Source: Synechococcus sp.
GTDB taxonomy: Bacteria; Cyanobacteriota; Cyanobacteriia; PCC-6307; Cyanobiaceae
Assembly: GCA_047285805.1 (NCBI GenBank)
Contig: JBJBCN010000002.1
Location: forward strand, 224,001-288,000
Direction of reading: 5' to 3'
DNA: 64,000 bases
The notes under the pieces were generated by a model. The model was not told the DNA's origin. It saw nothing but the letters and a program-made list of their open reading frames with translations, and did not search any database. A program made the position numbers and the translations under genes. How positions within the stretch are numbered: the stretch's first letter is position 1; each line of letters opens with the position of its first letter. Shown here in pieces: positions 15,910-56,464 of this stretch.

Positions 15910-16742
15910 TGGCCGCCGCGCCGGGGCCCTTCAGCGTCAATGAGCGTTGCATTGACTGCGGCACCTGCTGGCAATTCGATCCTCTGCACTTCGCCCCCAC
16001 CGGCCGCTGCGCCGAGGTCATTCGCCAGCCCGAGGGGGCGGCGGAAACGCATCAGGCTCTGTTGGCCCTGCAGGCCTGTCCGGTGGCGGCTATCGGCACG
16101 ACAGCGGAGTTGCGGCGGCTGACCCCAAGCGATGGCTTTCCTGCTCTGGTCACCCGCCATGCAGCTGGAGAGGTCTACTACTGCGGCTGGGCGTCACGCC
16201 GCAGTTTCGGGGCCAGCAGCTGGCTCGTGGTTCGGCCCGAAGGCAACGTCCTGATCGATTCGCCCCGTTGGAGTGCTCCCTTGGCTCGGCGCATCGCTGC
16301 CTTGGGCGGGCTTGCAGCCCTGGTGTTCACCCATCGCGACGACGTGGCCGACCACCAGCGCTGGGCCAAGGCTTTTGGTTGCAGCCGTTGGATTCACCAG
16401 GCCGACGCCGATGCTGCGCCAGACACGGAGCATCGGGTCCCGGGATCCGATGCGGTCACCCTCGATGGGGCGTTGCAGTTGATTCCCTGCTCTGGCCACA
16501 CGGCTGGGTCGATGTCGGTCCTCTTGGGCGAACACCGCTCGGTGCTCTTCAGTGGTGATCACCTCTGGTGGCGCCCTGAACAAGCGGTGCTGGTGGCTTC
16601 GGAGCGTTATTGCTGGTGGGATTTCCAGGAGCAGCTCCGCTCGGTGGAGCGCTTGCAGGAGCTGGATGTGACCTGGCTGCTCCCCAGCCACGGCCACGCC
16701 CACGCGTTTGCTCCCGCTGAGTGGCGCGCCGCTGTCCAGTAG
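15909..16742 (+). CDS. Ferredoxin-MBL-fold hydrolase fusion
   Basis: CIDCGTC...CPVAAI ferredoxin motif; THRDDVADH, GHTAGS, FSGDH. Confidence 0.88.
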   Translation: MAAAPGPFSVNERCIDCGTCWQFDPLHFAPTGRCAEVIRQPEGAAETHQALLALQACPVAAIGTTAELRRLTPSDGFPALVTRHAAGEVYYCGWASRRSFGASSWLVVRPEGNVLIDSPRWSAPLARRIAALGGLAALVFTHRDDVADHQRWAKAFGCSRWIHQADADAAPDTEHRVPGSDAVTLDGALQLIPCSGHTAGSMSVLLGEHRSVLFSGDHLWWRPEQAVLVASERYCWWDFQEQLRSVERLQELDVTWLLPSHGHAHAFAPAEWRAAVQ

Positions 16743-16937: not shown

Positions 16938-17924
16938 CTACCGGTCCGTGGCTCCTCCCCGGGAACCGATCTCCCCTGTCACCCAATAACGCACCCGCTC
17001 GGGATGGCTCTGGAGGTAGAAATCGACCGCGGTTTGGGCCGTTCCCTGATGGGCTTGCAGGAGGACCGCGGCCAGCTCCGTATCAGGAATCCGGAAGCGC
17101 GTCAGGAAGTCCGTCACCGAAGGGGCGATGGCACTGAGGTCTTGGCGGCCGACGGCGTGGATCCATTCCGTCCCCCCAAAGGCCCGTTTGGGATCCTCAA
17201 GAAAGCGCAGCTTGTAGCGGGCGAACATCCAGTGGGGCGTCCAGCTGGTGACGATCAGCCAACGCTGCTCACGGATGGCCTGGTCCAGCACAGCAGTCAT
17301 CGCGGCACTGCTGGAGGCCATGAGGCGCATGTCCCCAAGGCCGTAGTCCTTCAGGGCGACTTGGGAGAGTTGATTGAGGCCTGAGCCGGGATCGATTCCC
17401 TGAACGTGGTTGTTGAAGCGTGCGGCGACCGAGGGTTGGCGCAAGTCGGCGATGCTCCTGAGGACTTGGGGGTCGACATAGTCTGGGACGACCCAGCCCA
17501 AGCGACCGGAGTACATCGGACCGAGGTCCAGGACCCGATCCCGGACCCGCTTCCAGTAGTCCTGATGGGTCAAGGGCAACCAGGCCATCAACATCAAATC
17601 CAGATCGCCTCGGGCCACGGAGGCGTATTGGATGCCGATGTCGGCCAGCACCCGCTCCACAGGCCAATCGAGGTGGGTCTCAATCAGCTGCTTGGCCATC
17701 AGGCTGATGACTTCGGCATCCGCCCAGGGCGACCAGCCCAGGCGCAAGGGGCGACGTGAGACTCCCCCTCCCGTTGGCTGCGCTGGAGGACCAGACCCTG
17801 TCTGGCTGGGCTCAGGCGCCCCTGGGCGCCGGCTCAACTGGACCATGCTGGCCAGGGACAGTCCGGCGACCCCCAGTCCTGCGGTGAGTGCCGCACGCCG
17901 CGTCAGCCGTGGTGCGTCACTCAT
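16938..17924 (-). CDS. proX: Glycine betaine ABC transporter substrate-binding protein
   Basis: WSPWAD, AWLPLTH, GIDPGSG, WTPHWMF; twin-Arg N-terminus. Confidence 0.92.
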   Translation of the reverse strand: MSDAPRLTRRAALTAGLGVAGLSLASMVQLSRRPGAPEPSQTGSGPPAQPTGGGVSRRPLRLGWSPWADAEVISLMAKQLIETHLDWPVERVLADIGIQYASVARGDLDLMLMAWLPLTHQDYWKRVRDRVLDLGPMYSGRLGWVVPDYVDPQVLRSIADLRQPSVAARFNNHVQGIDPGSGLNQLSQVALKDYGLGDMRLMASSSAAMTAVLDQAIREQRWLIVTSWTPHWMFARYKLRFLEDPKRAFGGTEWIHAVGRQDLSAIAPSVTDFLTRFRIPDTELAAVLLQAHQGTAQTAVDFYLQSHPERVRYWVTGEIGSRGGATDR

Positions 17925-18793
17925 TGGCCTCTCCTCCAATGGCTGGGGGAAAGTCCTTGGCTTAGGCGGTCCAGGATCACCGCCAAGATCACCACGGCGA
18001 TGCCGCCTTCAAAGCCGAGCCCCACATCGAGCTGCTGGATGCCACGCAGCACCACATCACCCAAGCCACCACCGCCAATCATCGAGGTGATCACCACCAT
18101 CGAGAGGGCCAACATGATCGTCTGGTTGATACCGCTCATCACGGTGGGCAAGGCGTTCGGGAGCTGCACCATCCAAAGCAGTTGAAGATCCGTGCAGCCA
18201 AAGGAGCGGCCCGCCTCCACCAAATCAGCCGGCACCTGGCGAATCCCCAGGTGGGTCAGCCGGACGACCGGAGGCATCGCGAAAATCAACGTGGCGATGA
18301 TCGCGGGAACGGCTCCCGTGCTGAAGAGCATCACCGCCGGGATCAAATAGACAAAAGCCGGCATGGTCTGCATGAGGTCCAGCGCCGGGCGTAGCAGTCG
18401 CCAAATCCAGAGCTGACGCGTTCCCAGAACACCGAGGGGAAATCCCAGCAGCAGAGCCAAGAGGGAGGAGGCCAGCACTAGGGCCAGGGTGTCCACCATG
18501 GGATCCCACAGCCCCAGGGCTAAGACAAGGTTCAAGCCCAGCAGGCTGAAGAGGGCAAAGCCACCGCCGACCAGGCGCCATCCCGCAAGGGCAACCCCCA
18601 CGGCAAACAGCCAGGGTGCCGGCAGGGCCAGGCTCCAGCCCAGTGCGCTCGCCAAGGTCTGGATGCCCTGTTGAACAACACCAAACAATCCCTGGCCATG
18701 GTTGAGCAACCACTCCACCGCGGCATCAACGCTCTGGCCGACGGGCCCGGCCTGCTCAAGGCTTGCGATGAGAGGTGAGAAGGAGCAGCTCAT
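17921..18793 (-). CDS. proW: Glycine betaine ABC transporter permease
   Basis: LDLMQTMPAFVYLIP, EAGRSFG, GINQTIMLALSMVV. Confidence 0.93.
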   Translation of the reverse strand: MSCSFSPLIASLEQAGPVGQSVDAAVEWLLNHGQGLFGVVQQGIQTLASALGWSLALPAPWLFAVGVALAGWRLVGGGFALFSLLGLNLVLALGLWDPMVDTLALVLASSLLALLLGFPLGVLGTRQLWIWRLLRPALDLMQTMPAFVYLIPAVMLFSTGAVPAIIATLIFAMPPVVRLTHLGIRQVPADLVEAGRSFGCTDLQLLWMVQLPNALPTVMSGINQTIMLALSMVVITSMIGGGGLGDVVLRGIQQLDVGLGFEGGIAVVILAVILDRLSQGLSPSHWRRGQ

Positions 18794-19863
18794 CAGACAC
18801 CCTCCCGCAGGGTCTCCAGCAGCCGCCGGGGCGTGACAACACCCAGCAGCCGCTTCTGGTGATCAAGAACCGGAGTAGGCCATGGGTTCCGAGCGACGGC
18901 GGGGATGGCGTCGTTGACCAGAGATTTGGACTCAAGCGCGCCTGTGGCTTCGGCCTGGATCCACCCGTCCTGGGGGCTAAGGATCCCCAGGAATTGCCCC
19001 GATGGGTTCAGGGCGAAACACAGCTGCTGATGGCCCCGGTCCGCGGGATCTGCCCCATCGGGCAGGACCAGGGTCTGAGTGCAGGGCTCGCGGATCTGCT
19101 CGAGGTTCAGGACGGAACCCCGGTCGACGCCCTTGAAGAAGGCTCGAACCTCGTGGCTGGCTGGCGCCGTGAGCAGCTCTAGGGGAGTCCCGCATTGGAG
19201 GACCTGCCCCGATTGCATTAGCGCGACGCGATCGCCAATGCGAATGGCCTCATCGAGGTCATGGGAGATGAAGACCACCGTGCGTCGCTGTTCCGCCTGC
19301 AGATCCAGCAGAAGGTCCTGCATGTCCCTGCGGATCAGGGGATCGAGGGCGGAGAAGGCCTCATCCATCAACAGGATGGGGGGATCGAGTGCCAGGGCCC
19401 GGGCCAAGCCCACCCGTTGCTGCATGCCCCCGGAGAGTTGCGCCGGTTTCAGGTGCTGCTGCTGTCCTAGACCTACGCGCTCCAGTGCCCTTTTGGCCGG
19501 AGCCAACCGCTTGGCCCTGGGCAGCCCTGCGACTTCGAGCCCAAAGGCCGCATTGTCGAGAACGCTCCGCTGGGGGAAGAGCGCGAACGATTGGAACACC
19601 ATGGCCATGGCTTGCCGGCGCAGGCGGTTGAGTTCGCGTTTGGAGAGGTCGGACAGGTTCTGACCGCGGACTGCGACGGATCCCGAGCTGGGTTGGATCA
19701 GTCCATTAATCATCCGCAACAGGGTCGATTTGCCTGAGCCAGAGAGGCCCATGACTACAAAAACTTCGCCCGGTTCGATCGCTAGGGATACCTGCTGGAC
19801 GGCGGCAGCGGATTGGCCTGGGAATTGTTTGGAGAGGGCGTCGAGCGTGATCGCTGAAGACAC
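18793..19863 (-). CDS. proV: Glycine betaine ABC transporter ATPase
   Basis: GLSGSGKST, LSGGMQQRVGLARAL, MDEAFSALDPLIR; GTG start inferred. Confidence 0.93.
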   Translation of the reverse strand: MSSAITLDALSKQFPGQSAAAVQQVSLAIEPGEVFVVMGLSGSGKSTLLRMINGLIQPSSGSVAVRGQNLSDLSKRELNRLRRQAMAMVFQSFALFPQRSVLDNAAFGLEVAGLPRAKRLAPAKRALERVGLGQQQHLKPAQLSGGMQQRVGLARALALDPPILLMDEAFSALDPLIRRDMQDLLLDLQAEQRRTVVFISHDLDEAIRIGDRVALMQSGQVLQCGTPLELLTAPASHEVRAFFKGVDRGSVLNLEQIREPCTQTLVLPDGADPADRGHQQLCFALNPSGQFLGILSPQDGWIQAEATGALESKSLVNDAIPAVARNPWPTPVLDHQKRLLGVVTPRRLLETLREGV

Positions 19864-20183
19864 GGTTCTCCGACCCACTTTTTTAAACGCTAGCCATGCA
19901 TGAGTAGGAGCGCAGGTGTGACCCATGAACTTAGGTCTTTAGCAAGTTCAAACATTTGCTCGGATGGCCTTTGCTCACTTTGATGTCGGCGACAGCAGGA
20001 CACGTGTGTTTTGCAACAGGGCCCGCTTTGCGCTGACAGCCATGGTGCTCATCGATAGGTTGCGGCCATGGCGCACTTCATGGCTTTGTGACGTGTGTCC
20101 GGAGGCCTCTTTTGAGGTGATCCCCCCAGCCCTCTTGCTGAGCTCTGAACGGTCTGCGTCTGTCAGTGGCTCCCCCGGTTTGA

Positions 20184-21056
20184 ATGACGACATCTCATCG
20201 CACCAAGACCTCGGCGGCCCATCGGCCCAAGTCCGCGGGGGCGAAGGATGAACAGCGTTTCGGTGCGGTCCCCGAAGCCGTTCGGGAGACCGATCACTAT
20301 CAACAGGAATACATCGAGCAATTTGCAGATCGTTGGGACCGGCTGATTGATTGGGAGGCCAGAGCCCAGGCTGAAGGTGATTTTTATATCCGCATCCTGC
20401 GGGAGCATGGTGCGAAATCGGTACTCGATGTCGCCACGGGGACAGGCTTCCACTCGATTCGACTCCTGCAGGAGGGGTTCGATGTGGTCAGCGCCGACGG
20501 CAGTCCCAACATGTTGGCGCGGGCATTTCGTAATGCTCGCGACCGCAACCAGCTGTTGAGGACGGCCCAGGCCGATTGGCGATTTTTGAACCGTGATATT
20601 CACGGAACATTCGATGCGGTGATTTGCCTGGGTAACTCGTTCACCCATCTCTTTCGCGAGAAGGATCGTCGTAAATCCCTGGCTGAGTACTACGCCGTCT
20701 TGAAGCACAATGGTCTTCTGATTCTTGACCACCGCAACTACGACCGCCTCTTAGAAGGTGGTGCCGCGGTGAAGCAAGGCAAGGGAACGGTGTATTGCGG
20801 AGAAGATGTTTCCGTGAGCCCTGATTGTGTCGATGAGGGCTTGGCACGCTTTCGCTACGCCTTCAGTGATGGAAGCACTTTCCACCTGAATATGTTCCCG
20901 CTCCGCTATGGCTATGTGCGCCGACTGATGCGGGAAGTTGGCTTTCAAAAGATCACCAGCTACGGGGACTATCAGCGCAGCAAGGACGATCCCGATTTCT
21001 ACGCCCATGTCGCCCATAAGGCCTACGAGACCGATGGCGATACGACGGTGATCTAG
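20184..21056 (+). CDS. bsmA: Glycine/sarcosine N-methyltransferase (GSMT)
   Basis: TDHYQQEY, WDRLIDW, VLDVATGTGFHS, CLGNSFTHLF, LDHRNYD. Confidence 0.93.
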   Translation: MTTSHRTKTSAAHRPKSAGAKDEQRFGAVPEAVRETDHYQQEYIEQFADRWDRLIDWEARAQAEGDFYIRILREHGAKSVLDVATGTGFHSIRLLQEGFDVVSADGSPNMLARAFRNARDRNQLLRTAQADWRFLNRDIHGTFDAVICLGNSFTHLFREKDRRKSLAEYYAVLKHNGLLILDHRNYDRLLEGGAAVKQGKGTVYCGEDVSVSPDCVDEGLARFRYAFSDGSTFHLNMFPLRYGYVRRLMREVGFQKITSYGDYQRSKDDPDFYAHVAHKAYETDGDTTVI

Positions 21057-21058
21057 TC

Positions 21059-21910
21059 ATGACTCAGACGCACTTCTCCGCCTCAGAGCGCACCGCTTCG
21101 GACTACTACGACAGCGCCGATGCTGATTGTTTCTATGAAGAGATTTGGGGCGGTGAAGACATTCACATCGGCCTTTACGCTTCCGAGACCGAAGCCATCG
21201 CATCGGCCAGCCAGCGTACGGTCAACGCCTTAATCGCCTTGATTGGCACCCTCCCGCGCGGGGCCACGGTCGTTGATTTGGGTTCGGGATATGGCGGTGC
21301 TGCCCGGCGCCTCGCCAAGGAGTTCGGGGCCCATGTCGAGGCGATCAATATCTCGGCCGTTGAAAACGCCCGGCACCGTCGGCTCAACCAGAGTGCCGGA
21401 TTGCAGGACCAAATCCAGGTGCACGATGCCTCCTTTGAGGACGTTCCCCTGCCCTCAGGCTGTGCGGATGTGGTCTGGAGTCAGGACGCGATCCTGCACT
21501 CCGGCAACCGTCAGCAGGTCCTCCAGGAGGCGGCGCGGTTGTTGAAGCCAGGCGGTGTGATGGTCCTCACGGATCCGATGGCCGCCGATGGGGTGGATAC
21601 AGGTTCCCTGAGCGCGATCCTCGACCGCATTCACCTGCCCGACATGGGATCACCGGATCGCTATCTAGCCTGGGCCAGTCAGGCCGGCTTGGTCCGTGAG
21701 GTCTGGCAGGACCAGACGGCGATGTTGATTCGCCATTACGGCCGCGTCCGCGAGGAGCTTCTGCGCCGAGAGCAGGAGTTGAAGACCAAGATCAGCCAGG
21801 AGTACCTCCAGCGGATGGCCGCTGGCTTGGGTCATTGGATTGATGGTGGACGCCAGGGACGTCTGAGTTGGGGGCTGATGCGCTTCCGCAAGCCTCTGCA
21901 GGAGGCCTAA
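21059..21910 (+). CDS. bsmB: Sarcosine/dimethylglycine N-methyltransferase (SDMT)
   Basis: YYDSADAD.FY..IWGGEDIHIGLY, DLGSGYGG, WSQDAILH. Confidence 0.93.
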   Translation: MTQTHFSASERTASDYYDSADADCFYEEIWGGEDIHIGLYASETEAIASASQRTVNALIALIGTLPRGATVVDLGSGYGGAARRLAKEFGAHVEAINISAVENARHRRLNQSAGLQDQIQVHDASFEDVPLPSGCADVVWSQDAILHSGNRQQVLQEAARLLKPGGVMVLTDPMAADGVDTGSLSAILDRIHLPDMGSPDRYLAWASQAGLVREVWQDQTAMLIRHYGRVREELLRREQELKTKISQEYLQRMAAGLGHWIDGGRQGRLSWGLMRFRKPLQEA

Positions 21911-22038: not shown

Positions 22039-23478
22039 ATGGCGTTCGCTCCCATGCTTGCTGTGCAGCCGTTCTTGGCCCCAGGCCTTGCCTGGGCCCT
22101 GGTGGTCATCTTCTCGGTGCTCTGGATCGCACTCGGGGTGTCCTGGGGGCAGCGCGGCTCTGGTGATGCCGATGACTACATGTTGGCCGGCCGCAACATC
22201 GGTTTGGCCCTTAGCACCGCAACCTTGATGGCGTCCTGGGTGACCGGCAACACCACTTTGTTGGCGCCGGAGTTTGGTTATCGGAACGGCCTCTGGGGAA
22301 TGTTCAGTTACGCCCTGGCCGGTCTGGGCTTGGTCCTGTTTGCGCCATTGGCCCTACGGATCAAACACCTGATGCCCAAGGGGCGCACCAGCGGTGACTT
22401 CATTCGCCTCCGCTACGGCCGCGCGACCTGGTGGGTCTTCATGGTGATCACCGCCATCTACACCCTCGGTTTCCTGATGACCCAGGCGATGGGAGCGGGG
22501 ATCCTGCTGGAGGCCCTTTCGGGTTTTGACTACCGCCTAGGGATGGTCGTAGTGATTGGCGTCTCGACGATCTATACCCTCTATGGCGGGATGCGCGCCG
22601 TTGTGGGAACGGACTTCATTCAGTCCCTCTTGATAATGGGGCTGCTGGTTTTGGTTGCCGTGTTGGCGCTGCAGCAGTTCCCGGTTCCTGAGCTCCATCG
22701 CGCTTTGGTCGAGGAACATCCGGAGCGGCTGAATTTGCTTTTGCCGGCGGGTTTGTTGATTGCTTGGAACTCCGCCCTCTTCTCTATGGGCGAGGTCTTC
22801 CACAACAACATATGGTGGTCAAGGGTATTCTCCAGTCGTGCCTCCGTCGTCTTTAGCTCGTTCGTGCTCGGCGGCTTGGCATGGATGACGGTGCCTTTGG
22901 TGACTGGCTCCATCGGCCTGGTGGCGTTGGCTCAGTCGGTGGATTTGCCCCAGGTGAACATGCTGTTCCCGGTTGTGGCCTCCCAGTTGCTTGGGGCGGG
23001 GGGTGCGGCCTTGGTCTTTGTGGTCGTCTTTGCCTCGTTGACCTCAACATTGGATTCGCTATTGGCTTCGACGGCGGATTTGGTAGCCGAAGACGTGGTC
23101 TTCAAGCTGCTGAATCCCAATTTGAGTGATGCCCAATTGCGGCAGGCCACGCGCCTTGTGGTTCTGGGGTTGGGGCTTTTGACCTTGCTGCTGTCGTGGC
23201 CGCGCCTGGATTCCTTGGCGTCCGTTCTCTTCTTCACCGGTGCCCTTGTGGCTTCCACGATCTGGCCGGTGGCCTACGGCCTCTATTGGCGCAGTGCGAA
23301 CCGGTGGGCCGCCATTGCCGCGATGGTCTCCGGCAGTGCCGTGGGCCTGGCTGCGTATGTCCTGATCGCGCCCTACTGCGCGGCGTTGCTCTCCGCAGCG
23401 GTCTCGGCGGCGGTGATGGCTGTGGGCACTCAGTTTCAGCCCGAGCGCTTCAACTGGCTCACCTTGAAGGAGGGATAA
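22039..23478 (+). CDS. Sodium:solute symporter (SSS) family transporter
   Basis: YMLAGRN, YTLYGGMRAVVGTDFIQ, ASLTSTLDSLL; many TM helices. Confidence 0.92.
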   Translation: MAFAPMLAVQPFLAPGLAWALVVIFSVLWIALGVSWGQRGSGDADDYMLAGRNIGLALSTATLMASWVTGNTTLLAPEFGYRNGLWGMFSYALAGLGLVLFAPLALRIKHLMPKGRTSGDFIRLRYGRATWWVFMVITAIYTLGFLMTQAMGAGILLEALSGFDYRLGMVVVIGVSTIYTLYGGMRAVVGTDFIQSLLIMGLLVLVAVLALQQFPVPELHRALVEEHPERLNLLLPAGLLIAWNSALFSMGEVFHNNIWWSRVFSSRASVVFSSFVLGGLAWMTVPLVTGSIGLVALAQSVDLPQVNMLFPVVASQLLGAGGAALVFVVVFASLTSTLDSLLASTADLVAEDVVFKLLNPNLSDAQLRQATRLVVLGLGLLTLLLSWPRLDSLASVLFFTGALVASTIWPVAYGLYWRSANRWAAIAAMVSGSAVGLAAYVLIAPYCAALLSAAVSAAVMAVGTQFQPERFNWLTLKEG

Positions 23479-23481
23479 GTC

Positions 23482-23706
23482 ATGGCACGGTTTCGGATGA
23501 CAACCCGCTGGGCCCTCACCCTTGCCCTGTTGGCTGTGCTGATGCCTGTGGCCAGGGCGGGAGAAGCGAGCGCGCCACCGCGCTGGTTGGCAGATCTTCC
23601 ATTGCTGCAGGTTTTGATCTACGGAAGCGTTGCGGGCTTGGCTCTTTCGGTGCTGATCCTGTTGATCCTTTGGTGGAAAGAGTGGAGGCGCGGTGATGTT
23701 TGGTGA
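23482..23706 (+). CDS. Small membrane protein downstream of SSS
   Basis: 74 aa, signal-like N-terminus plus TM, ends WWKEWRRGDVW; GGAG upstream. Confidence 0.7.
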   Translation: MARFRMTTRWALTLALLAVLMPVARAGEASAPPRWLADLPLLQVLIYGSVAGLALSVLILLILWWKEWRRGDVW

Positions 23707-23876
23707 TCTCTAAGACTTTATAAATTCGTTGCTTGCACTTTCTTGAACCTCTGGCTAGTAATCGAGAAGGCAGGAGCAACTGAACCAAGCTTCACCGCTG
23801 TCCTCGCAGAGGCACTTCTTTTGACTGCGCTTATCAGGAGTCCTTCTCCCTGATGTCTCAGGTCTGATTTCCCGAA

Positions 23877-24992
23877 ATGGTCATCTCTTCTCCCTCTTCT
23901 CATCTTGTCTCAGAACGCTCTATGCGTTTCAAGCCGATGGGGCCAGATGTCTACGGGGCGACTTCTCCTAAGGACCTTCTTTTAGCGATTGAAGAAGATG
24001 GTGATGCACTTCATGACTTGGCCGACCAGCACGTAATATCTGTCCAACCATTCAAGGCGAATACACTGCTTCAATTGTTCCGTCTAGCCGCGAAATACGA
24101 GAGCAATCCTGAGCGCTATACCTCACATAATACACCCCTAAAAGGCAAGATTCTTATAAATGCTTTTTATGAGCCTAGTACGCGTACAAGGCTGTCGTTT
24201 GATAGCGCTTGGCATCGCCTGGGTGGCGACTCTATTAATATAACAGACCGAAGTACAACTGGCTTGGCCAAGGGTGAGTCTTATGAAGATGTTGCGCATA
24301 TGTTTAATAATTATGGCGACTGTATTGTTCTTAGGGACGGAGACTCGAGCGCTGTCTATTCGATGGCGGATACTCTTCGCATTCCGATTATTAACGCAGG
24401 TAATGGGATTGATGAACACCCCACTCAGGCAATGGCCGACCTCTATACGATTCTAAAGTGGAGGCCTTCTTTGGTTGCTTCTGAGGTCTCTCCTGGAGAG
24501 CGGGTGAGAATCGGAGTCGTTGGAATCCCAAGTCGTATGCGAACTGTCCGCTCGCTTCTGCGGATTCTTGTTAAATTTCCTCAAATTGTTGAGGAGCTTG
24601 TGCTTATACATGACCCTGCCAAAAACGCTGCCGAGGAATTGTTCGACCCCGGGCAATTGGAGGAGTTACAGCAGGTTGGAGTCAATGTGCGTTGCACCGG
24701 AGATCTTCAGGGTGAAATCCCTGGGCTTGATGTCATCTATATCAATGCAATCGCTTGGGTGGGTGATAGTTATGAGGTGCATGGTCATTCCTTCCGTCTG
24801 ACCAGAGATCTGCCGTACAAGCCAAATGCAATTGTTCTGCACCCTCTGGCTCGAGGCCCGGAGCTGAGCACCTGCCTCGATAACACCCCCCACAACTGGT
24901 ATTTCAGTCAGGCCCGGGGTGCGGTCTTCCTGCGGATGGCTCTGCTCACCTGCATGGTGGATCGCACCAACCGGGTCATGGATGTGATCTGA
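23877..24992 (+). CDS. Aspartate/ornithine carbamoyltransferase-family protein (PyrB-like, divergent acceptor site)
   Basis: FYEPSTRTRLSF, KGES, INAGNG..EHPTQ, HPLAR; lacks the PyrB TRVQKER motif. Confidence 0.9.
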   Translation: MVISSPSSHLVSERSMRFKPMGPDVYGATSPKDLLLAIEEDGDALHDLADQHVISVQPFKANTLLQLFRLAAKYESNPERYTSHNTPLKGKILINAFYEPSTRTRLSFDSAWHRLGGDSINITDRSTTGLAKGESYEDVAHMFNNYGDCIVLRDGDSSAVYSMADTLRIPIINAGNGIDEHPTQAMADLYTILKWRPSLVASEVSPGERVRIGVVGIPSRMRTVRSLLRILVKFPQIVEELVLIHDPAKNAAEELFDPGQLEELQQVGVNVRCTGDLQGEIPGLDVIYINAIAWVGDSYEVHGHSFRLTRDLPYKPNAIVLHPLARGPELSTCLDNTPHNWYFSQARGAVFLRMALLTCMVDRTNRVMDVI

Positions 24993-25004: not shown

Positions 25005-27053
25005 ATGTGTGGAATCGGCGGTGTCTTCAGCACCACGGCGGATCAAGCCGTTGATCCCCAGCTTCTGGTCAACATGGCCGCGATCCAGGAGCATCGCGGT
25101 CCCGATGGTTTTGGCTATCGCACAGTCGATGGATGCGGAGTGGGCTTCTGCCATGCCCGCCTGTCGATCATTGACCTCAATGAGACCAGGGCACGCCAAC
25201 CGTTCTTAAGCGGAGAGCCGGGGTCGGGTGCGCGGGTCCTGATGGCCCACAACGGCGAGTTCTATGACTTCCAGCGGATTCGCGCCGACCTGACGGCCCG
25301 CGGTGTTCGCTTCAGCAGCAAGAGCGATTCCGAAATCCTGCTGCGCCTCTACCAACAGCAGGGCTTGCAGGCGACCCTGCCGCAACTGCGCGGTGAATTC
25401 GCCTTCGCGCTTTATGACGAGGCCGGAGATACGTTGCATCTCGTCCGGGATCGTTTCGGTATCAAGCCCCAGTACTGGACGATCACTCCCCAGGGCTTGG
25501 TCTTCGGTTCAGAGCTGAAGGTGTTGTTTGCCCATCCGGCGGTGGAGCGCCGCTTCACCTCGGAAGGGCTCTTCCATCAGTTGATGCAAACCATGGTCCC
25601 CGGAACCACCGCCTTTGAGGGGATCCGTCAGGTGCCGCCCGGTCACGGCATCAGCGTGCGCCGCCGCAACGGCAGCCTGCAGGTCGAGACCTGGAAGTAC
25701 TGGGATATGGACTTCCCCCGCCAGGGCGAGCGGGACAGCAGCAAGACCGAGTCCGACCACATCGATGCGATTCGTGCGGCGCTGCTCGAAGCGGTGGAGC
25801 TGCGGATGGTCGCCGATGTGCCCGTGGGTTGTTACCTCTCGGGAGGCATCGACAGTTGCTCCATCCTCGGCCTGGCCGCCGCCGTCAGCCAGAGCCCGGT
25901 CAAGGCGTTCACCATTGGTTTCGATGACGCCCGCTACGACGAGTCGCCGATCGCCAAGGAGATGGCCGACGCCACGGCGGCCGAGCAGGACGTGATGCGT
26001 CTCTCGGGTAGGGAGCTCTACGGCTGGATGGAGCGCACCCTCTGGCACACCGAGCGGACGATCTACAACACCTTGGCGGTGGCGAAATTCCTGATGAGCC
26101 GCCATGTCAACCAGGTCAACTACAAGGTGGTGATGACTGGGGAGGGCTCCGATGAGCTCTTCGGTGGCTATCCGGCCTTCCGACGCGACATGTTCCTGCA
26201 CGGTCTCCAGGACCTGCCTGAGCAGGACCGTCAGGCCTGGGAGGACTTGTTGCAGCAGTCCAATGCCCTGGTGCAGGGGGCAATGTTGGCGGCGGATCAA
26301 GTGGATGATCCGGACCTCGATGCGGTCGTTGGTTTCACCCCCAGTTGTCTCCAGCCCTGGTTGGCCTGCGCGCCGCTGGTGCCGGCCCTGCTCGCGGATG
26401 CCCATCGCGAGGCCCTCTCGGGCTATTCCCCGGGCAAGGCCATTGCCAAGACCTTGGATGCGGAACAACTCGAGGGACGCCACGCCCTCGATAAGGCCCA
26501 GTACGTCTGGATCAAGACGATGTTGGAGGGCCAAATCCTGACCTGGGGCGGTGACCGGGTCGATATGGCGAATTCCATGGAGGCGCGTCCGGCCTTCTTG
26601 GATCACCATCTGGCCGCGGCGGCGGTTCAGGTGCCGCCGGAGTTGCGGATTAAGGGGAAGACGGAGAAGTACGTCCTGCGGGAGGCCATGGCCGGTCTGC
26701 TGCCGGAGGTGCTCTACAAGCGCGAGAAATTTGCCTTCATGGCCCCGCCGGCCCATACCGAGCTCGAGAAGTGGGAGCAGATGAAGCAGCTGGCGAACGA
26801 CTATCTCAGTGATGAGGCGATCGAAGCCGCGGGACTGCTCAGCGTGGATGGCGTTCGGGCCCTCTTCGCCCGCCATGGCGACCCGGCGACCACCGATGCC
26901 GATCGGGTGCAGATGGACGCCATGATCAACCATCTTCTCGGCGCGCAGATGCTGCACAGGATGTTCATTGCCGCGGACGTGCCGGCACAGGCCCGGGCCA
27001 AGGCCGATGCCCTGGGTTGGCATCCCGCTCGGGAGGCTGCTGCCGTTTGCTGA
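25005..27053 (+). CDS. asnB: AsnB-family glutamine-dependent amidotransferase
   Basis: MCGI, HRGPDG, HNGEFY, LSGGIDS, GEGSDELFGGY; GAGGAGG RBS. Confidence 0.93.
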   Translation: MCGIGGVFSTTADQAVDPQLLVNMAAIQEHRGPDGFGYRTVDGCGVGFCHARLSIIDLNETRARQPFLSGEPGSGARVLMAHNGEFYDFQRIRADLTARGVRFSSKSDSEILLRLYQQQGLQATLPQLRGEFAFALYDEAGDTLHLVRDRFGIKPQYWTITPQGLVFGSELKVLFAHPAVERRFTSEGLFHQLMQTMVPGTTAFEGIRQVPPGHGISVRRRNGSLQVETWKYWDMDFPRQGERDSSKTESDHIDAIRAALLEAVELRMVADVPVGCYLSGGIDSCSILGLAAAVSQSPVKAFTIGFDDARYDESPIAKEMADATAAEQDVMRLSGRELYGWMERTLWHTERTIYNTLAVAKFLMSRHVNQVNYKVVMTGEGSDELFGGYPAFRRDMFLHGLQDLPEQDRQAWEDLLQQSNALVQGAMLAADQVDDPDLDAVVGFTPSCLQPWLACAPLVPALLADAHREALSGYSPGKAIAKTLDAEQLEGRHALDKAQYVWIKTMLEGQILTWGGDRVDMANSMEARPAFLDHHLAAAAVQVPPELRIKGKTEKYVLREAMAGLLPEVLYKREKFAFMAPPAHTELEKWEQMKQLANDYLSDEAIEAAGLLSVDGVRALFARHGDPATTDADRVQMDAMINHLLGAQMLHRMFIAADVPAQARAKADALGWHPAREAAAVC

Positions 27054-27143: not shown

Positions 27144-28424
27144 TTGGTTCTCTCTGCCCCGGGCGTTGGTACCCACACCACGACTGCACAGCGTCGGCCT
27201 ACTCCTAATGCGATGCGCCTGCTGGCGTCCCTGGAGGCCATGGCCGAGGTGGGACTGCAGCCCGATGGTTCGATCTGTCGCCGGGGCTTCACGGCTGAAG
27301 ACCGTCAGGGCCGCGAACGACTGAGTGAATGGATGATTGATGCCGGCCTGAGCCTGCGCATCGATGCCGCTGGCAATTTAATTGGCAGGCTTGAGGGTTC
27401 GGCCCCCAGCCTTCCAGCCCTCGTCACCGGCTCGCATCTCGACACGGTCCCAACGGGGGGGCGCTACGACGGCACCCTCGGTGTCTTGGCGGGCCTGGAA
27501 TTGGTTCGCGCGCTTCAGGACGCCTCGCTCCAGCTCCGCCACCCCTTTGAGTTGATCGTCTTTGCCGACGAGGAGTCCACGATGGTGGGCTGCAAGGGCA
27601 TGGCCGGCACCGCCAGCGCTGACCCCAGCGACTACACCACCAGCAACGGTGTGCCGATTGAGCGAAACCTGGCGCGTCTCGGGGGGGATTGGGACCGGCT
27701 TGCCAGCGCCGCCCGCAGTGATGACGCAATTGCAGCCTTCATCGAACTGCATGTGGAGCAGGGGGCCGTACTCGAGTGGCGTGGAGACAGCATTGGTGTT
27801 GTTCAGGGCGTCGTTGGCCAACGCCGTTTCACGATCCGCGTGCGCGGTCAGGCGAATCACGCCGGCACCACGCCGATGGATCAGCGTCAGGACGCTCTGG
27901 TGGCGGCAGCGCAGGTGGTCTTAGCCGTCCAGGCCCTCGCCCTGGATCATCCCGGTGATCCCGTGGCCACGGTCGGTAAGTTTGAGGTCTGGCCGAATGC
28001 CGCCAACGTCGTGCCTGGCGAGGTGCAGTGCAGCGTCGACCTGCGCGATCTCGACCCCGAGGTGTTGTCCGCATTAACCACAGAGCTGCAGCGGCGGCTG
28101 GCTGCCATCGCGGAGTCGAGCGGATGCCGCGTGACGATGGAGCCCCAGTTTTCGGTCGACCCCACCCCTGCCGCTCCGTCGCTGATGGACGCGATCGAGG
28201 CCGCTGCGATGGAGCTGGGCTTCTCGTACAGTACGTTGCCGAGCCGCGCTAGCCACGACGCCCAAGAAATGGGTCGTCGCTGGCCGATGGGGATGGTCTT
28301 TGTCCCCAGCCACCGTGGCTTGAGCCATTCCTCAGCCGAGTTCACAAGCTTGGAGCAGTGTGTGGCTGGGACGGCGGTGCTGCTATCGGCGTTCCTGCGG
28401 CTGGACGCGCAACTTCAGGGATGA
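27144..28424 (+). CDS. M20 N-carbamoyl-L-amino acid amidohydrolase (HyuC/AmaB/PydC-like); start uncertain
   Basis: GSHLDTVPTGGRYDG, DEES, ELHVEQG, ANHAGTTPM, SRASHDAQ, GLSH. Confidence 0.92.
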   Translation: MVLSAPGVGTHTTTAQRRPTPNAMRLLASLEAMAEVGLQPDGSICRRGFTAEDRQGRERLSEWMIDAGLSLRIDAAGNLIGRLEGSAPSLPALVTGSHLDTVPTGGRYDGTLGVLAGLELVRALQDASLQLRHPFELIVFADEESTMVGCKGMAGTASADPSDYTTSNGVPIERNLARLGGDWDRLASAARSDDAIAAFIELHVEQGAVLEWRGDSIGVVQGVVGQRRFTIRVRGQANHAGTTPMDQRQDALVAAAQVVLAVQALALDHPGDPVATVGKFEVWPNAANVVPGEVQCSVDLRDLDPEVLSALTTELQRRLAAIAESSGCRVTMEPQFSVDPTPAAPSLMDAIEAAAMELGFSYSTLPSRASHDAQEMGRRWPMGMVFVPSHRGLSHSSAEFTSLEQCVAGTAVLLSAFLRLDAQLQG

Positions 28425-29140
28425 CTTTCTCGATCCTGGCGCGTGACCCCTCCAATGGGCGCTTCGGTGTGGCCGTCGCCACCTGCCATCTCGCGGTTGG
28501 CTCAACCGTGCCCCACATCCGTTCCGGTGTCGGTGCCGTGGCGACCCAGGCCCATGCGAACCCTTACCTCGGGATCTGTGGCTTGGAGCGGATGGAGCAG
28601 AACCGCGATGCCGAGTCGGTCCTGGCGAGCCTGCTGCGGGACGACCCCCAAATCGAGCACCGCCAACTGCACCTGATTGACGCCTGCGGCCGCACAGCGG
28701 GTTGGACCGGTCGGGCCTGCGGCCCCTACGCCGGCCATCGCTGTCATGCGGATCTGGCTGTGGCGGGAAACTTCCTCGCGGGTGAGGCTGTGCTGCTGGC
28801 GATGGAGGAGGCCTTCCTCTTGAGCGACCCCTCCTGGAAGTTGGGGCGACGCCTGCTCACGGCCCTTCAGGCCGGTGAGCAGGCCGGCGGCGATCGACGC
28901 TCCCCGCATGCCACTTCGGCGGCCCTGCAGGTCAGCGGTGAGGCGGCTTTCCCGCTGTTGGATCTGCGGGTGGACTTTGAGGACTGCGCGGTCGCATCCT
29001 TGACCCTGCTCTATGCGCGGAGTCAGCAACTTTGGGTCCAGCAATGGAGGGACGCCTTCGCCGAACTCCCGAATCCAGCGAGTCGTGCGATGAACCGGAC
29101 AGTCACCCCGTTGGTGAGGGATGACCCTTCGGTGGCTTAG
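28421..29140 (+). CDS. DUF1028 Ntn-hydrolase-family protein
   Basis: MTFSILARDP...FGVAVAT...GAVATQ, GNFL, GGDRR, DLRVD; ATGA overlap with the hydrolase gene. Confidence 0.9.
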   Translation: MTFSILARDPSNGRFGVAVATCHLAVGSTVPHIRSGVGAVATQAHANPYLGICGLERMEQNRDAESVLASLLRDDPQIEHRQLHLIDACGRTAGWTGRACGPYAGHRCHADLAVAGNFLAGEAVLLAMEEAFLLSDPSWKLGRRLLTALQAGEQAGGDRRSPHATSAALQVSGEAAFPLLDLRVDFEDCAVASLTLLYARSQQLWVQQWRDAFAELPNPASRAMNRTVTPLVRDDPSVA

Positions 29141-29919
29141 CTGATCAGGTCACGAATGACCCGGGCCCATCCCTCGCCATGGGCAGCGGGGGCCAAGAGA
29201 TAGCGCTTCTGCTCAAGGGCGCGGTGGAAAGCGGGGTGCGGGCCATCCGGCCCCGGAACAACGACGGCTACATCGGCGGCCTCCAGCAAAGGGATGTCGT
29301 TGGGGGAGTCCCCCAGCCCGAGCACCCGTGGCTTCGGGCCGCCGAGCCGTTCCTTTAGCCGTAACAACGCATCTCCTTTGCTCACTTCGGGCCCCAGCAG
29401 ATGCCCCATGCGGTTGCCTTGCACCACACTCAAACCAAGAGAGGAGGCCAGGGCGGGTAGGCGTTTCCTCCCTTCCGCGGTTGGGGGGACAAAAGGGACA
29501 CTCCAGCAGCGTCGCTGGGCTTGGGCGAGGGCTTCACCACCGAGGCCCAAGAGACGCTTCCCCTCGCTTTCGCTGAGCTCCTCCAGGGCCACGAGCCGTT
29601 CACCCAGGAGCGCCTCCAAGGCATCCAGCTGTGGCCTCAAGTGGCTGTGGTGGATGCCGAGGGCCTCTTCCCACTCCTCACCGCGGGCGTCTTCGCCATG
29701 GATGGCTCCACCGTTTTCGACGATGAAGGGATCACGAAGGCCAGCAGCGTCCCGAAAGCCCCGGACCTCTTCCGCGGTTTTGCTCGTGCAGGGGATCACT
29801 GGGATCTGTTGCTTCTGCAGCCAGCGGAGGGTCGTGCGGGCCGGCTCCCAGCTGTAGCTGTGATCCAGCAACGTCCCATCCAGGTCGGTGACGATCCACC
29901 AGGTGTTGTGACGTGTCAT
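29137..29919 (-). CDS. gpgP: Glucosyl/mannosyl-3-phosphoglycerate phosphatase (HAD IIB)
   Basis: TDLDGTLLD, CTSKT, ENGG, GDSPND. Confidence 0.88.
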   Translation of the reverse strand: MTRHNTWWIVTDLDGTLLDHSYSWEPARTTLRWLQKQQIPVIPCTSKTAEEVRGFRDAAGLRDPFIVENGGAIHGEDARGEEWEEALGIHHSHLRPQLDALEALLGERLVALEELSESEGKRLLGLGGEALAQAQRRCWSVPFVPPTAEGRKRLPALASSLGLSVVQGNRMGHLLGPEVSKGDALLRLKERLGGPKPRVLGLGDSPNDIPLLEAADVAVVVPGPDGPHPAFHRALEQKRYLLAPAAHGEGWARVIRDLIS

Positions 29920-31652
29920 CGGCTGCTGATCCAATAGACGCCAAAGGGTTCCAGCTCCAGTTGGCGCTTGGCCTTGACCGTTCCAGCTGGATTGAGGTGA
30001 TCGATCCATTCCGGTGGAGAGGACTCACCCCATAGCGATGCCAACACGAGTGATTGGCGCGTGGCGCTGAAGTTGTGGATAGCCCACAGACGGGCTGGGC
30101 CGAGGCCACGCTCGAGGATCACCAAATCGGAGCGTCCGCTACTGAGCACCCGCATCGGGGAGTCAGGGTCTAGGGCTGAGAGGTTGCCCCGTTTTCCCAT
30201 GGCGAACTGCAGCTGGGCAATGTTGCTGCTGGCGGCCTGGCCAGGGTCCTGGAGTTGGAGCTGCAGGGCTCTGGCGTTGAACTTTGGTCGATTCAAGTCC
30301 CTGCGATGGCCGCTGCTGTGGAAGCGGGCCGTGTCGTTGGGGGCGGCCAGCAGGGCGGGTAGATAAAAGGCAGGAACCCCCGGCAGGGCCAGCTTGAAGC
30401 GCTGGCTGAGCAGAAAACGCTCCTGCTGCAATCGCTGTGGATCCCGACCGGCATCGGCCATAGCGCTCCACCAGCTGATGTTGATTTCGTAGGGGGCCTC
30501 GGTCCCATCACTGAGGCGGCGGTGGCTGATCAAGCCGCCCCGTTGTTCACAGCCCGCCAGGAGGTGGTGAAGGCGCGGCTGATCCATCAGCCCCTCCAGT
30601 GGCCGCAGACCGACACCGTCATGGCTGGCGCTGAAGTTCAGCAGGTTGGTCCCCTTGGGTAGATCCGGCCAACCGGCCAGCCAGCGGTTGAGGAGATCGC
30701 AGCGCTCGCTCTGGCAGGCCTCGAGCAGCAGCGGGGGCAGGGGGAAGTTGTAGGCCAGGTGTGCTTCCCGACCGGATCGCAGATAGGAGAGGTTTTCCTC
30801 CTCCGGGACGTTCGTCTCAGTCACCACGGCCCCCTCAGGGGCTTGGTCCTCCTGCAGCAGTCGTAGCACTTCGACGATGGCGTGGGCTTGGGGCCGGTGA
30901 ATGCAGCTCGTGAAAGGTTCCTTCCAGACGTATCCCACGGCGTCCAGCCGCAACCAGCCGACGCCGTGGCGGAAGAGGCGTTGCATCAGGTGGGCGAAAT
31001 GACGCAGCACCTCGGGCTCCTGCCAGTTCAGGTCTATTTGGTCTGGGCCGAAGGTGGTCCAGACCTGCTTGCGGCCGGCCAGGGGACTGATCAAGGGCGA
31101 GCTGCGGGGCCGAACGACTTCCGACCAGCAGGGATCGGGGCTGGCCTGCAGGATGCAGGAGCTTCCGGGGTCAGTGTCTTGGAGGCATTGGTGCACCCAG
31201 GGGTGCGAAGCCGAGACGTGGTTCAGGACAAGGTCCGCCATGAGGAGACGTCCACGGCTCAAGGCCTCGAGGTCTTCCCAATCACCAAAGCGTGGCTCGA
31301 GCTCCTCGTGGCTGGAGATGGCAAAGCCCCCGTCGCTGCTGGATCGCAAAAAGGGCAGCACATGGACGATGGAGGAGAGGGCGCGGAGCGGGCCATCCAA
31401 CAGTGCTTTCAGCAGGGGAAGGCTGGTGCGATCAGCATCGATGACCGAATCGGCGTAGCAGATCAGCACACAGGTCGCATTGCACCAGGGCCGCTGCGGC
31501 TGGGTGTGCATCTGCGCACCGATTCGGCCGGACTGCAGCAAATGAGACGACAAGCTTTCGATGTCGTTTGAAGACTGCCCTGGGTAAAGACCGCCAAGCA
31601 ACAGTTCCAGCTGTTTCTGCCGGTCGAACCCAACCACCAGCACTCCCATCAC
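29916..31652 (-). CDS. GH13 sucrose/glucosylglycerate phosphorylase-like protein
   Basis: HVLPF..SSDGGF, DLVLNH, WTTFGPDQIDLN, RLDAVGYVWK, ETNVP, SHDG. Confidence 0.9.
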   Translation of the reverse strand: MMGVLVVGFDRQKQLELLLGGLYPGQSSNDIESLSSHLLQSGRIGAQMHTQPQRPWCNATCVLICYADSVIDADRTSLPLLKALLDGPLRALSSIVHVLPFLRSSSDGGFAISSHEELEPRFGDWEDLEALSRGRLLMADLVLNHVSASHPWVHQCLQDTDPGSSCILQASPDPCWSEVVRPRSSPLISPLAGRKQVWTTFGPDQIDLNWQEPEVLRHFAHLMQRLFRHGVGWLRLDAVGYVWKEPFTSCIHRPQAHAIVEVLRLLQEDQAPEGAVVTETNVPEEENLSYLRSGREAHLAYNFPLPPLLLEACQSERCDLLNRWLAGWPDLPKGTNLLNFSASHDGVGLRPLEGLMDQPRLHHLLAGCEQRGGLISHRRLSDGTEAPYEINISWWSAMADAGRDPQRLQQERFLLSQRFKLALPGVPAFYLPALLAAPNDTARFHSSGHRRDLNRPKFNARALQLQLQDPGQAASSNIAQLQFAMGKRGNLSALDPDSPMRVLSSGRSDLVILERGLGPARLWAIHNFSATRQSLVLASLWGESSPPEWIDHLNPAGTVKAKRQLELEPFGVYWISSR

Positions 31653-31705
31653 TCCCCCCAGATATCGGGCAGCTGGCTGATGAGTGTTGTCGCATTGATT
31701 ACTGC

Positions 31706-32971
31706 ATGGACTTCCAGCAAGGACTAATCACTACGGTTCATGACTACGGCTTCTCGGGGGCGGACCCGCAGTTATTCCATCAGCAGTTGCATGATCGGCC
31801 GACGGCTCTGCTGCTCCCCTGCTTGATGGAGGAGTTCCGCCGTCCGGCATTGCGCCTGATCCGCGAGGTCTTGTCCGGGTTGGAAGGACTGCAGTCGCTA
31901 GTCATCGCCCTGGCGGCGGATTCCGTGGAAGAGGTCTTGGAGGCCGAGGCGTTCTGGGCGGAGATGCCATTCCCCGTGCATGTGCACTGGACCAACGGCC
32001 CGGCGGTGATCGAGCTCCTGCAGTCCGTGAAGTCCCTGGGCCTCGATGTGTTGGTTCCCCCTGGCAAGGGCTGGGCCGTTTGGCAGGGCCTGGGGGTGGC
32101 CTGCCGAGAGGCTGAAGTCGTTGGTCTCTTTGACGCTGACATCCGGACGTTCTCACCGGCTTACCCCCAGCGGATGCTCCAACCCCTGTTGGATCGCTCG
32201 ACGGGTGTGGCCTACGTCAAAGCCTTTTACAGCCGGTTGTCTCTAGAAACCCATGCCCTTCAGGGCCGGGCGACCCGCTTGTTTGTAGCGCCCCTGCTGA
32301 GCAGCCTGGAGCAGATCGTTGGTCCTCTGCCCTATCTGCGCTATCTCCAGTCGTTCCGCTACCCCCTCGCGGGGGAGTTCGCCTTCACGACTGATCTGGC
32401 GATGAACCTGCGAATTCCCTGCGATTGGGGTTTGGAGATCGGCCTGCTGTCGGAGGTCTACCGCCATGTCGCCATTAGCCGAATTGCCCAGGTGGATCTT
32501 GGGGTGTTTGACCACAAGCACAAGGCCCTTGGCAACGCCCCCGACCAGGGGCTCAAGCGGATGGCCAGCGAAATTTTGCGGACGGTCCTGCGGGGCTTGA
32601 TGGAGCACGAAGGCTGCAACTTGCTCAGCGAGCAACTTCCCACCCTGGAAGCGCTCTACCGCCGGGTGGGCCAAGATCGGGTCAGGCAGTTCGGACTGGA
32701 TTCCGCCATTAATGGCCTCCCCCATGACCGCCATGGCGAGGAACTGGCTGTTCAGGACTTTGCGCAGCTACTACGTCCGGCGATCAAGGATCTGATGGAC
32801 AGGCCATCGGTTCAGCAACTGCCCAGCTGGTCTCGGGTGCTCAGCTGTAGCCAGGATCTCCAGCAAGGCCTGGCCGCGGCGGGGCAGTGCCGATTAGCAG
32901 GACGTAACGCTGACTACGTCACCCTCCCATCGGATACGGCTCAATTGGGGGAGTCATTCGTCGCTGCATGA
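31706..32971 (+). CDS. gpgS: Glucosyl-3-phosphoglycerate synthase
   Basis: MDFQQGLITT, GKGWAVW, FDADI, KAFYSR, QGRATRLFV, FRYPLAGEF, DWGLEIG, DHKH. Confidence 0.88.
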   Translation: MDFQQGLITTVHDYGFSGADPQLFHQQLHDRPTALLLPCLMEEFRRPALRLIREVLSGLEGLQSLVIALAADSVEEVLEAEAFWAEMPFPVHVHWTNGPAVIELLQSVKSLGLDVLVPPGKGWAVWQGLGVACREAEVVGLFDADIRTFSPAYPQRMLQPLLDRSTGVAYVKAFYSRLSLETHALQGRATRLFVAPLLSSLEQIVGPLPYLRYLQSFRYPLAGEFAFTTDLAMNLRIPCDWGLEIGLLSEVYRHVAISRIAQVDLGVFDHKHKALGNAPDQGLKRMASEILRTVLRGLMEHEGCNLLSEQLPTLEALYRRVGQDRVRQFGLDSAINGLPHDRHGEELAVQDFAQLLRPAIKDLMDRPSVQQLPSWSRVLSCSQDLQQGLAAAGQCRLAGRNADYVTLPSDTAQLGESFVAA

Positions 32972-53926: not shown

Positions 53927-54076
53927 TCAGTAGCTGTTCTGCTTTAGAGCCGAAAAGCGCGACGTGCCCTCCCAAGGGGCCGGCATCGCTTTGTCGCGCG
54001 GTTTGCCGGCGTTCTGCATTTGCAGTGCGGCAGCACCAGCGGCGTAGCAGGCGGCGAAAACGGCGATGAACCCCAT
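53927..54076 (-). CDS. 49-aa micropeptide
   Basis: MGFIAVFAACYAAGAAALQMQNAGKPRDKAMPAPWEGTSRFSALKQNSY*. Confidence 0.5.
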   Translation of the reverse strand: MGFIAVFAACYAAGAAALQMQNAGKPRDKAMPAPWEGTSRFSALKQNSY

Positions 54077-54620: not shown

Positions 54621-54621
54621 T

Positions 54622-56376: not shown

Positions 56377-56464
56377 TCATTGGCATTAGGTAGACGTACC
56401 GATTGCAACGTCGATTGGGCCCAGCACCATATATGCTCGGGATACTCCGATGGGTAGGGAGATC

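Follow-up and report, generated by a model that had tools for sequence, protein, structure and literature searches.

The open reading frame at positions 23877 to 24992 (+) of the 64,000-nucleotide Synechococcus sequence analysed here, referred to as the window, encodes a carbamoyltransferase with the aspartate transcarbamylase (ATCase) fold that, judged from its motifs and gene neighbours, is a member of a published marine subgroup of pseudo-ATCases and not an ATCase. Its acceptor is predicted, with good support, to be an amino acid other than aspartate, with weak residual activity on aspartate being possible. We consider it somewhat better than an even bet (a probability of roughly 0.55) that the enzyme carbamoylates glutamine or glutamate and that the AsnB-like amidotransferase encoded directly downstream completes N-carbamoyl-L-glutamine 1-amide (CGA). 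The gene cluster and its surroundings are as follows:

16938..21910: left flank, a ProXWV-type betaine ABC transporter (-) and two glycine-betaine methyltransferases (+); a lineage-specific adjacency
22039..23478 (+): sodium:solute symporter, DUR3-like; closest solved relative the urea-proton symporter DUR3 (E 4.5e-29, against 5e-9 for the next family)
23497..23706 (+): small hydrophobic ORF of 69 aa (74 aa from 23482), with no Pfam match
23707..24750: low-GC divergent segment, recognised by GC and identity to congeners, covering the promoter and 5' four-fifths of the carbamoyltransferase gene
23877..24992 (+): carbamoyltransferase with ATCase fold, without R229/Q231 (marine pseudo-ATCase, pyrB2), from profile, sequence and fold matches
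25005..27053 (+): AsnB-like glutamine-dependent amidotransferase with N-terminal Cys2 and SGGIDS loop
27213..28424 (+): M20 N-carbamoyl-amino-acid hydrolase (carbamoylase), from a profile match
28421..29140 (+): DUF1028 protein starting Met-Thr, its ATG overlapping the carbamoylase stop
29137..32971: right flank, a GpgP-like phosphatase, a sucrose-phosphorylase-like protein and a GpgS-like synthase; a lineage-specific adjacency

The carbamoyltransferase ORF is an intact frame of 371 aa, with a possible alternative start at the ATG at 23922, and contains both Pfam transcarbamylase domains behind a family-specific N-terminal extension of about 45 aa. ATCases are its best solved relatives both by sequence and by fold; the AlphaFold model (pLDDT 87, pTM 0.88) gave only ATCases among the top Foldseek matches listed (E about 1e-23, TM 0.71-0.77). 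To map residues, the protein was aligned with HMMER to the ATCase chains of E. coli, Pyrococcus and a plant source and read against the active-site table of PMC4581275. In the carbamoyl-phosphate site, S101-T-R-T104 corresponds to ATCase S52-T55, T128 and K132 to S80* and K84* (the T128 match coming from the ungapped Pyrococcus alignment, the E. coli alignment being gapped at this residue), R153 to R105, and H181/Q184 to H134/Q137. The alpha-carboxylate ligands are likewise intact, as R222 (R167) and K132 (K84*), and all features of the aspartate and ornithine transcarbamylase superfamily are present: SxRT, the beta4 Arg, HPxQ, HxLx, the 80s-loop residues and the two-domain fold. At the side-chain end of the site, Y288-I-N-A-I-A-W294 aligns with Y226-M-T-R-V-Q-K232, placing A291 at R229 and A293 at Q231, while G-I-P replaces the ATCase G-D-L and H322-P-L-A325 corresponds to H265-P-L-P268, with a change of P268 to alanine.

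The first-pass annotation of this ORF had paired YMTRVQKER with YINAIAWVG by eye and read GDL as changed to GIP, and the HMMER alignment upholds both. Its further observations, that the carbamoyl-phosphate motifs and the alpha-carboxylate Arg are kept and that the ornithine motifs SMG and HCLP are absent, were borne out, the first two across the family and the third by comparison with the genome's own argF, which has both motifs. The change of P268 to alanine and the N-terminal extension go beyond that annotation, which named no acceptor. The checks it proposed gave an ATCase fold in the predicted structure, no R229/Q231 equivalents in the sequence alignment to E. coli PyrB, and a canonical pyrB elsewhere in the genome. 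The conclusion it drew, a different amino-acid acceptor, agrees with the family-wide loss of the clamp, the sub-cut-off profile scores and the presence of canonical pyrB and argF in the same genome, and is retained here as a prediction.

Conservation was assessed in 254 distinct homologues, drawn from both homologue searches and the cluster members (256 sequences, from which the amidotransferase and one fragment were removed), with the family delimited down to about 58% identity. Each carbamoyl-phosphate residue is kept in 253-254 of the 254, and R222 and K132 are each kept in all of them. None has R at position 291 or Q at position 293; the clamp is replaced by an invariant-type motif, N-A/S-I-A-W, and P218, M221, R222, N290, I292, W294 and HPLAR are invariant. 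Such invariance suggests a conserved new specificity motif rather than decay. The genome encodes three PF02729 proteins, namely this carbamoyltransferase, ArgF (SMG/HCLP) and PyrB (RLQKER). A NodU/CmcH-type carbamoyltransferase (PF02543) is also encoded in the same genome (G000:C3:369412-370446).

The carbamoyltransferase scores below all NCBIfam ATCase and OTCase cut-offs (TIGR00670, 192.9 against 236.95; PRK00856, 180.2 against 263), and membership of PyrB was rejected on these equivalog scores and on the absence of the 240s-loop RxQxER motif from 254/254 homologues. Ornithine, putrescine, N-acyl-ornithine and YgeW transcarbamylases were set aside for want of a DxxxSMG loop and HCLP, with scores far under their cut-offs, and DPTCase/DBTCase (abTCase) for the missing HDLP motif, the homologues having HPLA in 254/254. 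Ureidoglycine carbamoyltransferase was rejected by the lack of H(T/S)LP and by the lack of a carbamate kinase over cut-off in all five genomes tested. A pseudogene does not fit the intact frame or the substitution pattern to congeners (pN 0.09-0.11 against pS 0.84-0.90).

Paralogues of this kind were named pseudo-ATCases by Barba, Dutoit, Legrain & Labedan in 2013 (PMC4016543), with HPLA and AIA/AIS/SIA among the tabulated motifs. The marine subgroup described there includes Rhodopirellula, Nitrosococcus, Synechococcus WH 8102 and Kangiella, has the same STRT, HPTQ, HPLA and AIA motifs (Table 1 of PMC4016543) as the window enzyme, and has its genes placed between a Na+ symporter and an 'asparaginase', beside a carbamoylase. 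The window copy carries HPLA and AIA and shows the same order of Na+ symporter, enzyme, asparagine-related gene and carbamoylase, with the canonical pyrB elsewhere; the partner termed an asparaginase in PMC4016543 is, however, an AsnB-like synthetase in the window. The group labels of that paper appear to be swapped, the HPLA/AIA group being '1' in Table 1 and the marine group '3' in the text, because PMC4581275 gives H(T/S)LP for the Rubrobacter enzyme. The enzyme assayed in PMC4016543 is that of Rubrobacter. The motif loss is already in print, having been tabulated in 2013, and the pathway assignment would be the new part. Doré et al. (bioRxiv 10.1101/2022.08.17.504260; Doré 2023) describe asnB-pyrB2-pydC as a niche-linked cluster (ProCAG_007/SynCAG_003) that is commonest in warm waters poor in N and P, and propose an alternative pyrimidine route for it. 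A literature search, with theses and most subscription journals outside its scope, found no assay of this carbamoyltransferase type, no link between it and CGA, and no genes for CGA.

The amidotransferase gene starts 12 nt downstream of the carbamoyltransferase gene and its product has an intact Cys2 and ATP loop; it scores over the broad TIGR01536 cut-off and under those for true AsnB (255 against 499) and for the amidotransferase of the osmolyte NAGGN (288 against 570). The small hydrophobic ORF, whose 3' end is alignable in relatives, may encode an accessory subunit of the symporter. The DUF1028 protein, which we take to be an Ntn-hydrolase, may serve as an amidase. The flanking genes to the right are read as glucosylglycerate genes, with the sucrose-phosphorylase-like and GpgS-like proteins scoring under their cut-offs; the betaine/glucosylglycerate adjacency occurs in 1/80 related loci, and betaine genes in four of eight congeners. 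Further left, a methyltransferase (arsenite-methyltransferase-like by eye, with Cys-rich ends) lies at 14845-16742, its stop abutting a ferredoxin/metallo-beta-lactamase-like ORF. GC content at 54000-64000 is 0.50-0.59, against 0.62-0.65 in the left half of the window, a possible island.

Among 80 related loci the amidotransferase adjoins the carbamoyltransferase in 77 (three loci end at the carbamoyltransferase gene and one hit is inverted at a contig end); of the 80, 65 have the carbamoylase, 53 have DUF1028 and 49 have the symporter, many loci being incomplete. Of 301 genomes sampled from the window's family, 64 carry the carbamoyltransferase and the same 64 carry the amidotransferase, and in the family of Ectothiorhodospira mobilis each occurs in 49 of 55 genomes, with both in 48. 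In G055, the only such genome seen, the two core genes are about 700 kb apart on one contig (C4:1598416-1599471 and C4:2304941-2306953). Two complete copies of the gene pair, with differing affinities, are present in G220 (C1:1682796 and C1:2535827).

The 20 Ectothiorhodospiraceae loci follow the order MarR (18), carbamoylase, isochorismatase-family hydrolase (19), symporter (6), carbamoyltransferase and amidotransferase (18); the genes nearby include sucrose synthase (12), MscS (5) and a BCCT carrier (4). The isochorismatase-type enzyme and DUF1028 are never found together in 45 loci, a mutual exclusion that would fit one shared amidase role and that is confounded with taxonomy. In 3-4 of 16 cyanobacterial loci the cluster lies between molybdenum-cofactor and urease genes. 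A gene resembling carB (carbamoyl-phosphate synthase large subunit) by eye lies about 5-7 kb or less from the cluster at the left end of six Cyanobium-type loci (L057, L058, L061, L064, L072 and L074) and also in Aliikangiella (L033:28-1077). In 11 gammaproteobacterial loci (L033, L063, L065, L071, L080, L113 and L119-L123) the cluster is preceded by a protein of 120-150 aa that has a likely signal peptide and a membrane anchor at its C-terminus; the one member scanned had no Pfam or NCBIfam match.

Association with salt was examined using the unlinked glucosylglycerol synthase gene ggpS (TIGR02398) as the marker, in a cross-table compiled from genome lists. In the 301-genome family sample the carbamoyltransferase is present in 60/101 ggpS-positive and 4/200 ggpS-negative genomes; within the window's own genus the figures are 8/9 and 0/17, and in a second mixed genus 12/13 and 0/12. 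That the enzyme tracks ggpS speaks for a role in salt adaptation and for CGA, with the reservation that ggpS marks marine lineages, so that salt is confounded with other marine traits and related genomes are not independent.

A link to nitrogen is suggested by the GTA-N8-TAC palindrome, presumably the NtcA-type consensus, which occurs upstream of the carbamoyltransferase in 18/68 cyanobacterial loci in its strict form and 48/68 in a relaxed form, about two dozen of the 68 being near-identical Prochlorococcus copies; the background is 2.9% (strict) and 9.2% (relaxed) of 2,651 windows. In several Synechococcus and Cyanobium lineages whose spacers align poorly, the box turns up again 200-260 nt ahead of codon 27. 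Examples among the picocyanobacteria are L001:7849, L015:7857, L027:7813, L074:7829 and L031:7942, and an A-rich tract often follows the box after 20-35 nt. At three Prochlorococcus loci checked, the only standard start codon comes 21 nt after the end of the box, a position that would fit repression, with synthesis only when nitrogen is plentiful. Upstream of the symporter there is no enrichment (strict, 0/30). A control within the genome was partly passed: no strict GTA-N8-TAC lies within 450 nt upstream of glnA, urtA and amt1 (distances counted from the start of the model match), and a relaxed one is found in two of the three. The genome has 31 extended NtcA-type sites, of which 29 were fetched and 26 downstream ORFs scanned, the only nitrogen-like targets among these being a cyanase, an MFS transporter encoded next to a MobA-like gene, and a sigma factor. 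Two extended palindromes lie inside the window, at 32904-32917 and 61699-61712. A promoter scan gave no sigma-70 sites, and terminators were no better than chance. In an RNA screen of 15 runs the shares were 0.10 or less; at 85% identity or more, 25-29 of 30 bins are covered by contigs from four metatranscriptome runs, such contigs showing neither transcription nor its level.

Carbamoyl transfer, ATP-dependent amidation, uptake and two decapping hydrolases together are, by analogy with NAGGN, the layout of a neutral solute that would be both made and recycled. To our knowledge, CGA is the one N-carbamoyl amino acid amide known as a solute. Its carbamoyl group masks the alpha-amino group and its amide the alpha-carboxyl (PMC1224877), and that these two caps match the two activities encoded side by side argues for CGA as the product. 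In the first step, an acceptor with a free alpha-carboxylate would be carbamoylated before amidation, because the equivalents of R167 and K84 are kept. The Arg-to-Ala and Gln-to-Ala changes would open a deeper, uncharged pocket, and the loss of Arg229 would fit a longer neutral side chain such as that of glutamine. The AsnB-like enzyme would then use ATP and glutamine to amidate the 1-carboxylate, and the 5-carboxylate too if the acceptor is glutamate. The DUR3-like symporter would re-import the ureido compound, and the carbamoylase and DUF1028, the latter replaced by the isochorismatase-family hydrolase in Ectothiorhodospiraceae, would strip both caps for recovery of the nitrogen. With four nitrogens per molecule, CGA could be osmolyte and nitrogen reserve both.

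CGA has been reported from Ectothiorhodospira marismortui (PMC1224877, PMC7824335, PMC3857566), a species that NCBI files under E. mobilis. There are exactly three PF02729 genes in the draft assembly of E. mobilis DSM 237; they encode ArgF, PyrB and an enzyme of the pseudo-ATCase type with the same YINAIAWVG and HPLARG motifs, whose gene adjoins an amidotransferase gene. Three proteins labelled E. mobilis match at 90% identity or more, two of them with no strain given, so that the match to the CGA producer is one of species. No NodU/CmcH-type carbamoyltransferase was matched in the DSM 237 draft or in the four Ectothiorhodospiraceae genomes tested. That the CGA-producing species has this enzyme as its only spare transcarbamylase favours CGA, as do the coupling of the two core genes, the lack of a carbamate kinase over the cut-off in five of five genomes, and the osmolyte-related genes found nearby in two groups that are not related: those for betaine and glucosylglycerate in the window, and sucrose synthase, MscS and BCCT genes in Ectothiorhodospiraceae.

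Several observations argue against CGA. The operon is very widespread, whereas PMC3857566 describes CGA as a minor solute found in one organism only. Waters depleted in N and P, where the cluster is commonest, are an odd place for an osmolyte with four nitrogens, and the urease/molybdenum-cofactor neighbours and NtcA-type box tie the cluster to nitrogen rather than salt. The betaine/glucosylglycerate adjacency is rare, and the separation of the two core genes in G055 also counts against the proposal. The new pocket residues (Met, Ala, Ala, Trp and one Asn) would accept a hydrophobic side chain too. The same two-step anabolism could act on another acceptor (Asn, Ala, Met, Leu or the like). Its product would then be an N-carbamoyl amino acid amide not yet described, used as solute or nitrogen store, with CGA coming from other genes or as a side product. 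This explanation, which we consider unlikely, is favoured by the small or hydrophobic nature of the pocket substitutions, by the report of CGA from a single organism, and by the four further full-length AsnB-like genes of E. mobilis; however, that species lacks a further spare transcarbamylase and a NodU-type enzyme from which the carbamoyl group of CGA could come, and the uniform active-site motifs of the 254 homologues suggest one substrate.

Nitrogen scavenging is a catabolic alternative, in which the symporter would import an environmental ureido compound and the enzyme, activated through NtcA, would run backwards by phosphorolysis like ureidoglycine carbamoyltransferase. The DUR3-like transporter, the two hydrolases, the NtcA-type box, the proximity to urease in some Synechococcus, the enrichment in N-poor water (Doré et al.) and the catabolic nature of the characterised sister subgroup (PMC4016543) all fit such a function, but the partner that is almost always present is an amide synthetase that consumes ATP and depends on glutamine, the transporter is found in 49/80 loci (many incomplete) and is missing beside the Prochlorococcus copies, and the carbamoylase would render phosphorolysis redundant. 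The Prochlorococcus box position would also fit repression better than activation, and the lack of a carbamate kinase in 5/5 genomes disfavours an energy-yielding phosphorolysis, leaving scavenging improbable. We regard as very improbable a second ATCase in an alternative pyrimidine route, as suggested by Doré et al. and implied by public labels that read aspartate carbamoyltransferase; the closest solved sequences and folds are ATCases, yet the RxQxER that PMC4581275 (Shi et al.) gives for all known ATCases is absent from every homologue, the scores fall under the cut-offs (193 vs 237 and 180 vs 263), a canonical pyrB is present, and there is no dihydroorotase among the annotated neighbours.

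The copy in the window is atypical in its upstream part. A sharply bounded segment at about 23,700-24,750 has 42-54% GC and is 35-83% identical to the congeners G127, G062 and G338 (mostly 66-78% in the gene), against mostly 82-98% in the flanks; of the four congeners compared, G150 alone shares the segment, at 83-94%. The GC3 of the carbamoyltransferase gene is 0.50, against 0.81-0.82 in G127, G062 and G338, and ranks in the bottom 5% among 887 long ORFs from the genome, while synonymous divergence to G338 is 0.90 in the carbamoyltransferase and 0.20 in the amidotransferase, with pN near 0.1. In a tree limited to the homologues found in this analysis, the carbamoyltransferases of the window and G150 form, on a longer stem, the sister group (100/99) of those from the three congeners; a quick tree of the amidotransferase groups the window, G150 and G338. 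The strict box is present at the same offset in G127, G062 and G338 and in neither the window nor G150, and the catalytic and pocket residues of this copy are unchanged. The simplest reading of these patterns is that promoter and gene were exchanged in place for those of an unsampled relative, a replacement that would likely have removed the NtcA-type box; locally faster, AT-biased change could also have produced the segment. A search of viral contigs (70 pattern matches, of which none was confirmed) and of plasmids gave no mobile donor.

The fuller picture that follows is tentative, and one we would sooner doubt than accept in its entirety. The enzyme would be the first L-glutamine N-carbamoyltransferase. 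CGA would be made, re-imported and recycled by many marine Synechococcus, Cyanobium and some Prochlorococcus, and by soda-lake and marine Gammaproteobacteria, as a four-nitrogen osmolyte and reserve switched by NtcA with nitrogen supply; the lineage of the window, its NtcA-controlled promoter swapped out, may have placed the pathway under salt control within an osmolyte supercluster. If so, CGA would be an unrecognised organic-nitrogen currency of the surface ocean. The CGA assignment would add a new acceptor specificity to the transcarbamylases, would explain a niche-defining picocyanobacterial cluster now read as a pyrimidine route, and would relabel about 1,500 or more proteins, many annotated as aspartate carbamoyltransferase; at least 1,463 hits at E <= 1e-80 were obtained among 8,000 candidates scored. 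CGA has reportedly been known since 1991, from Galinski and Oren, and the gap in its genes, open since then, would be closed.

Compared with known systems, the carbamoyltransferase resembles PyrB (EC 2.1.3.2) in its fold (TM 0.71-0.77), its carbamoyl-phosphate site, and the conserved K84*, R167 and E50. It differs in the absence of R229, Q231 and R234, in the changes of D162 to a hydrophobic residue, G166 to Met and P268 to Ala, in a shorter 240s loop modelled as a beta-hairpin, in the N-terminal extension of about 45 aa, and in its gene context. Rxyl_2847, the ureidoglycine carbamoyltransferase of Rubrobacter xylanophilus, is likewise a paralogue resembling ATCase in which the R167 equivalent persists and RxQ is gone, but it carries H(T/S)LP, is catabolic, and lies in a purine-catabolism context with carbamate kinase and allantoinase. 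The NAGGN pathway uses the amidotransferase AsnO together with Ngg. The window amidotransferase was rejected as a NAGGN enzyme, scoring 288.4 against the TIGR03104 cut-off of 570.1 in a conserved cluster without an acetyltransferase or ligase. The likeness lies in the osmolyte, which is neutral, derives from glutamine and has its two charged ends masked, in the formation of the C-terminal amide by an AsnB-like enzyme, and in a hydrolase gene alongside; NAGGN is an acetyl-capped dipeptide, whereas the product proposed here would bear a carbamoyl cap.
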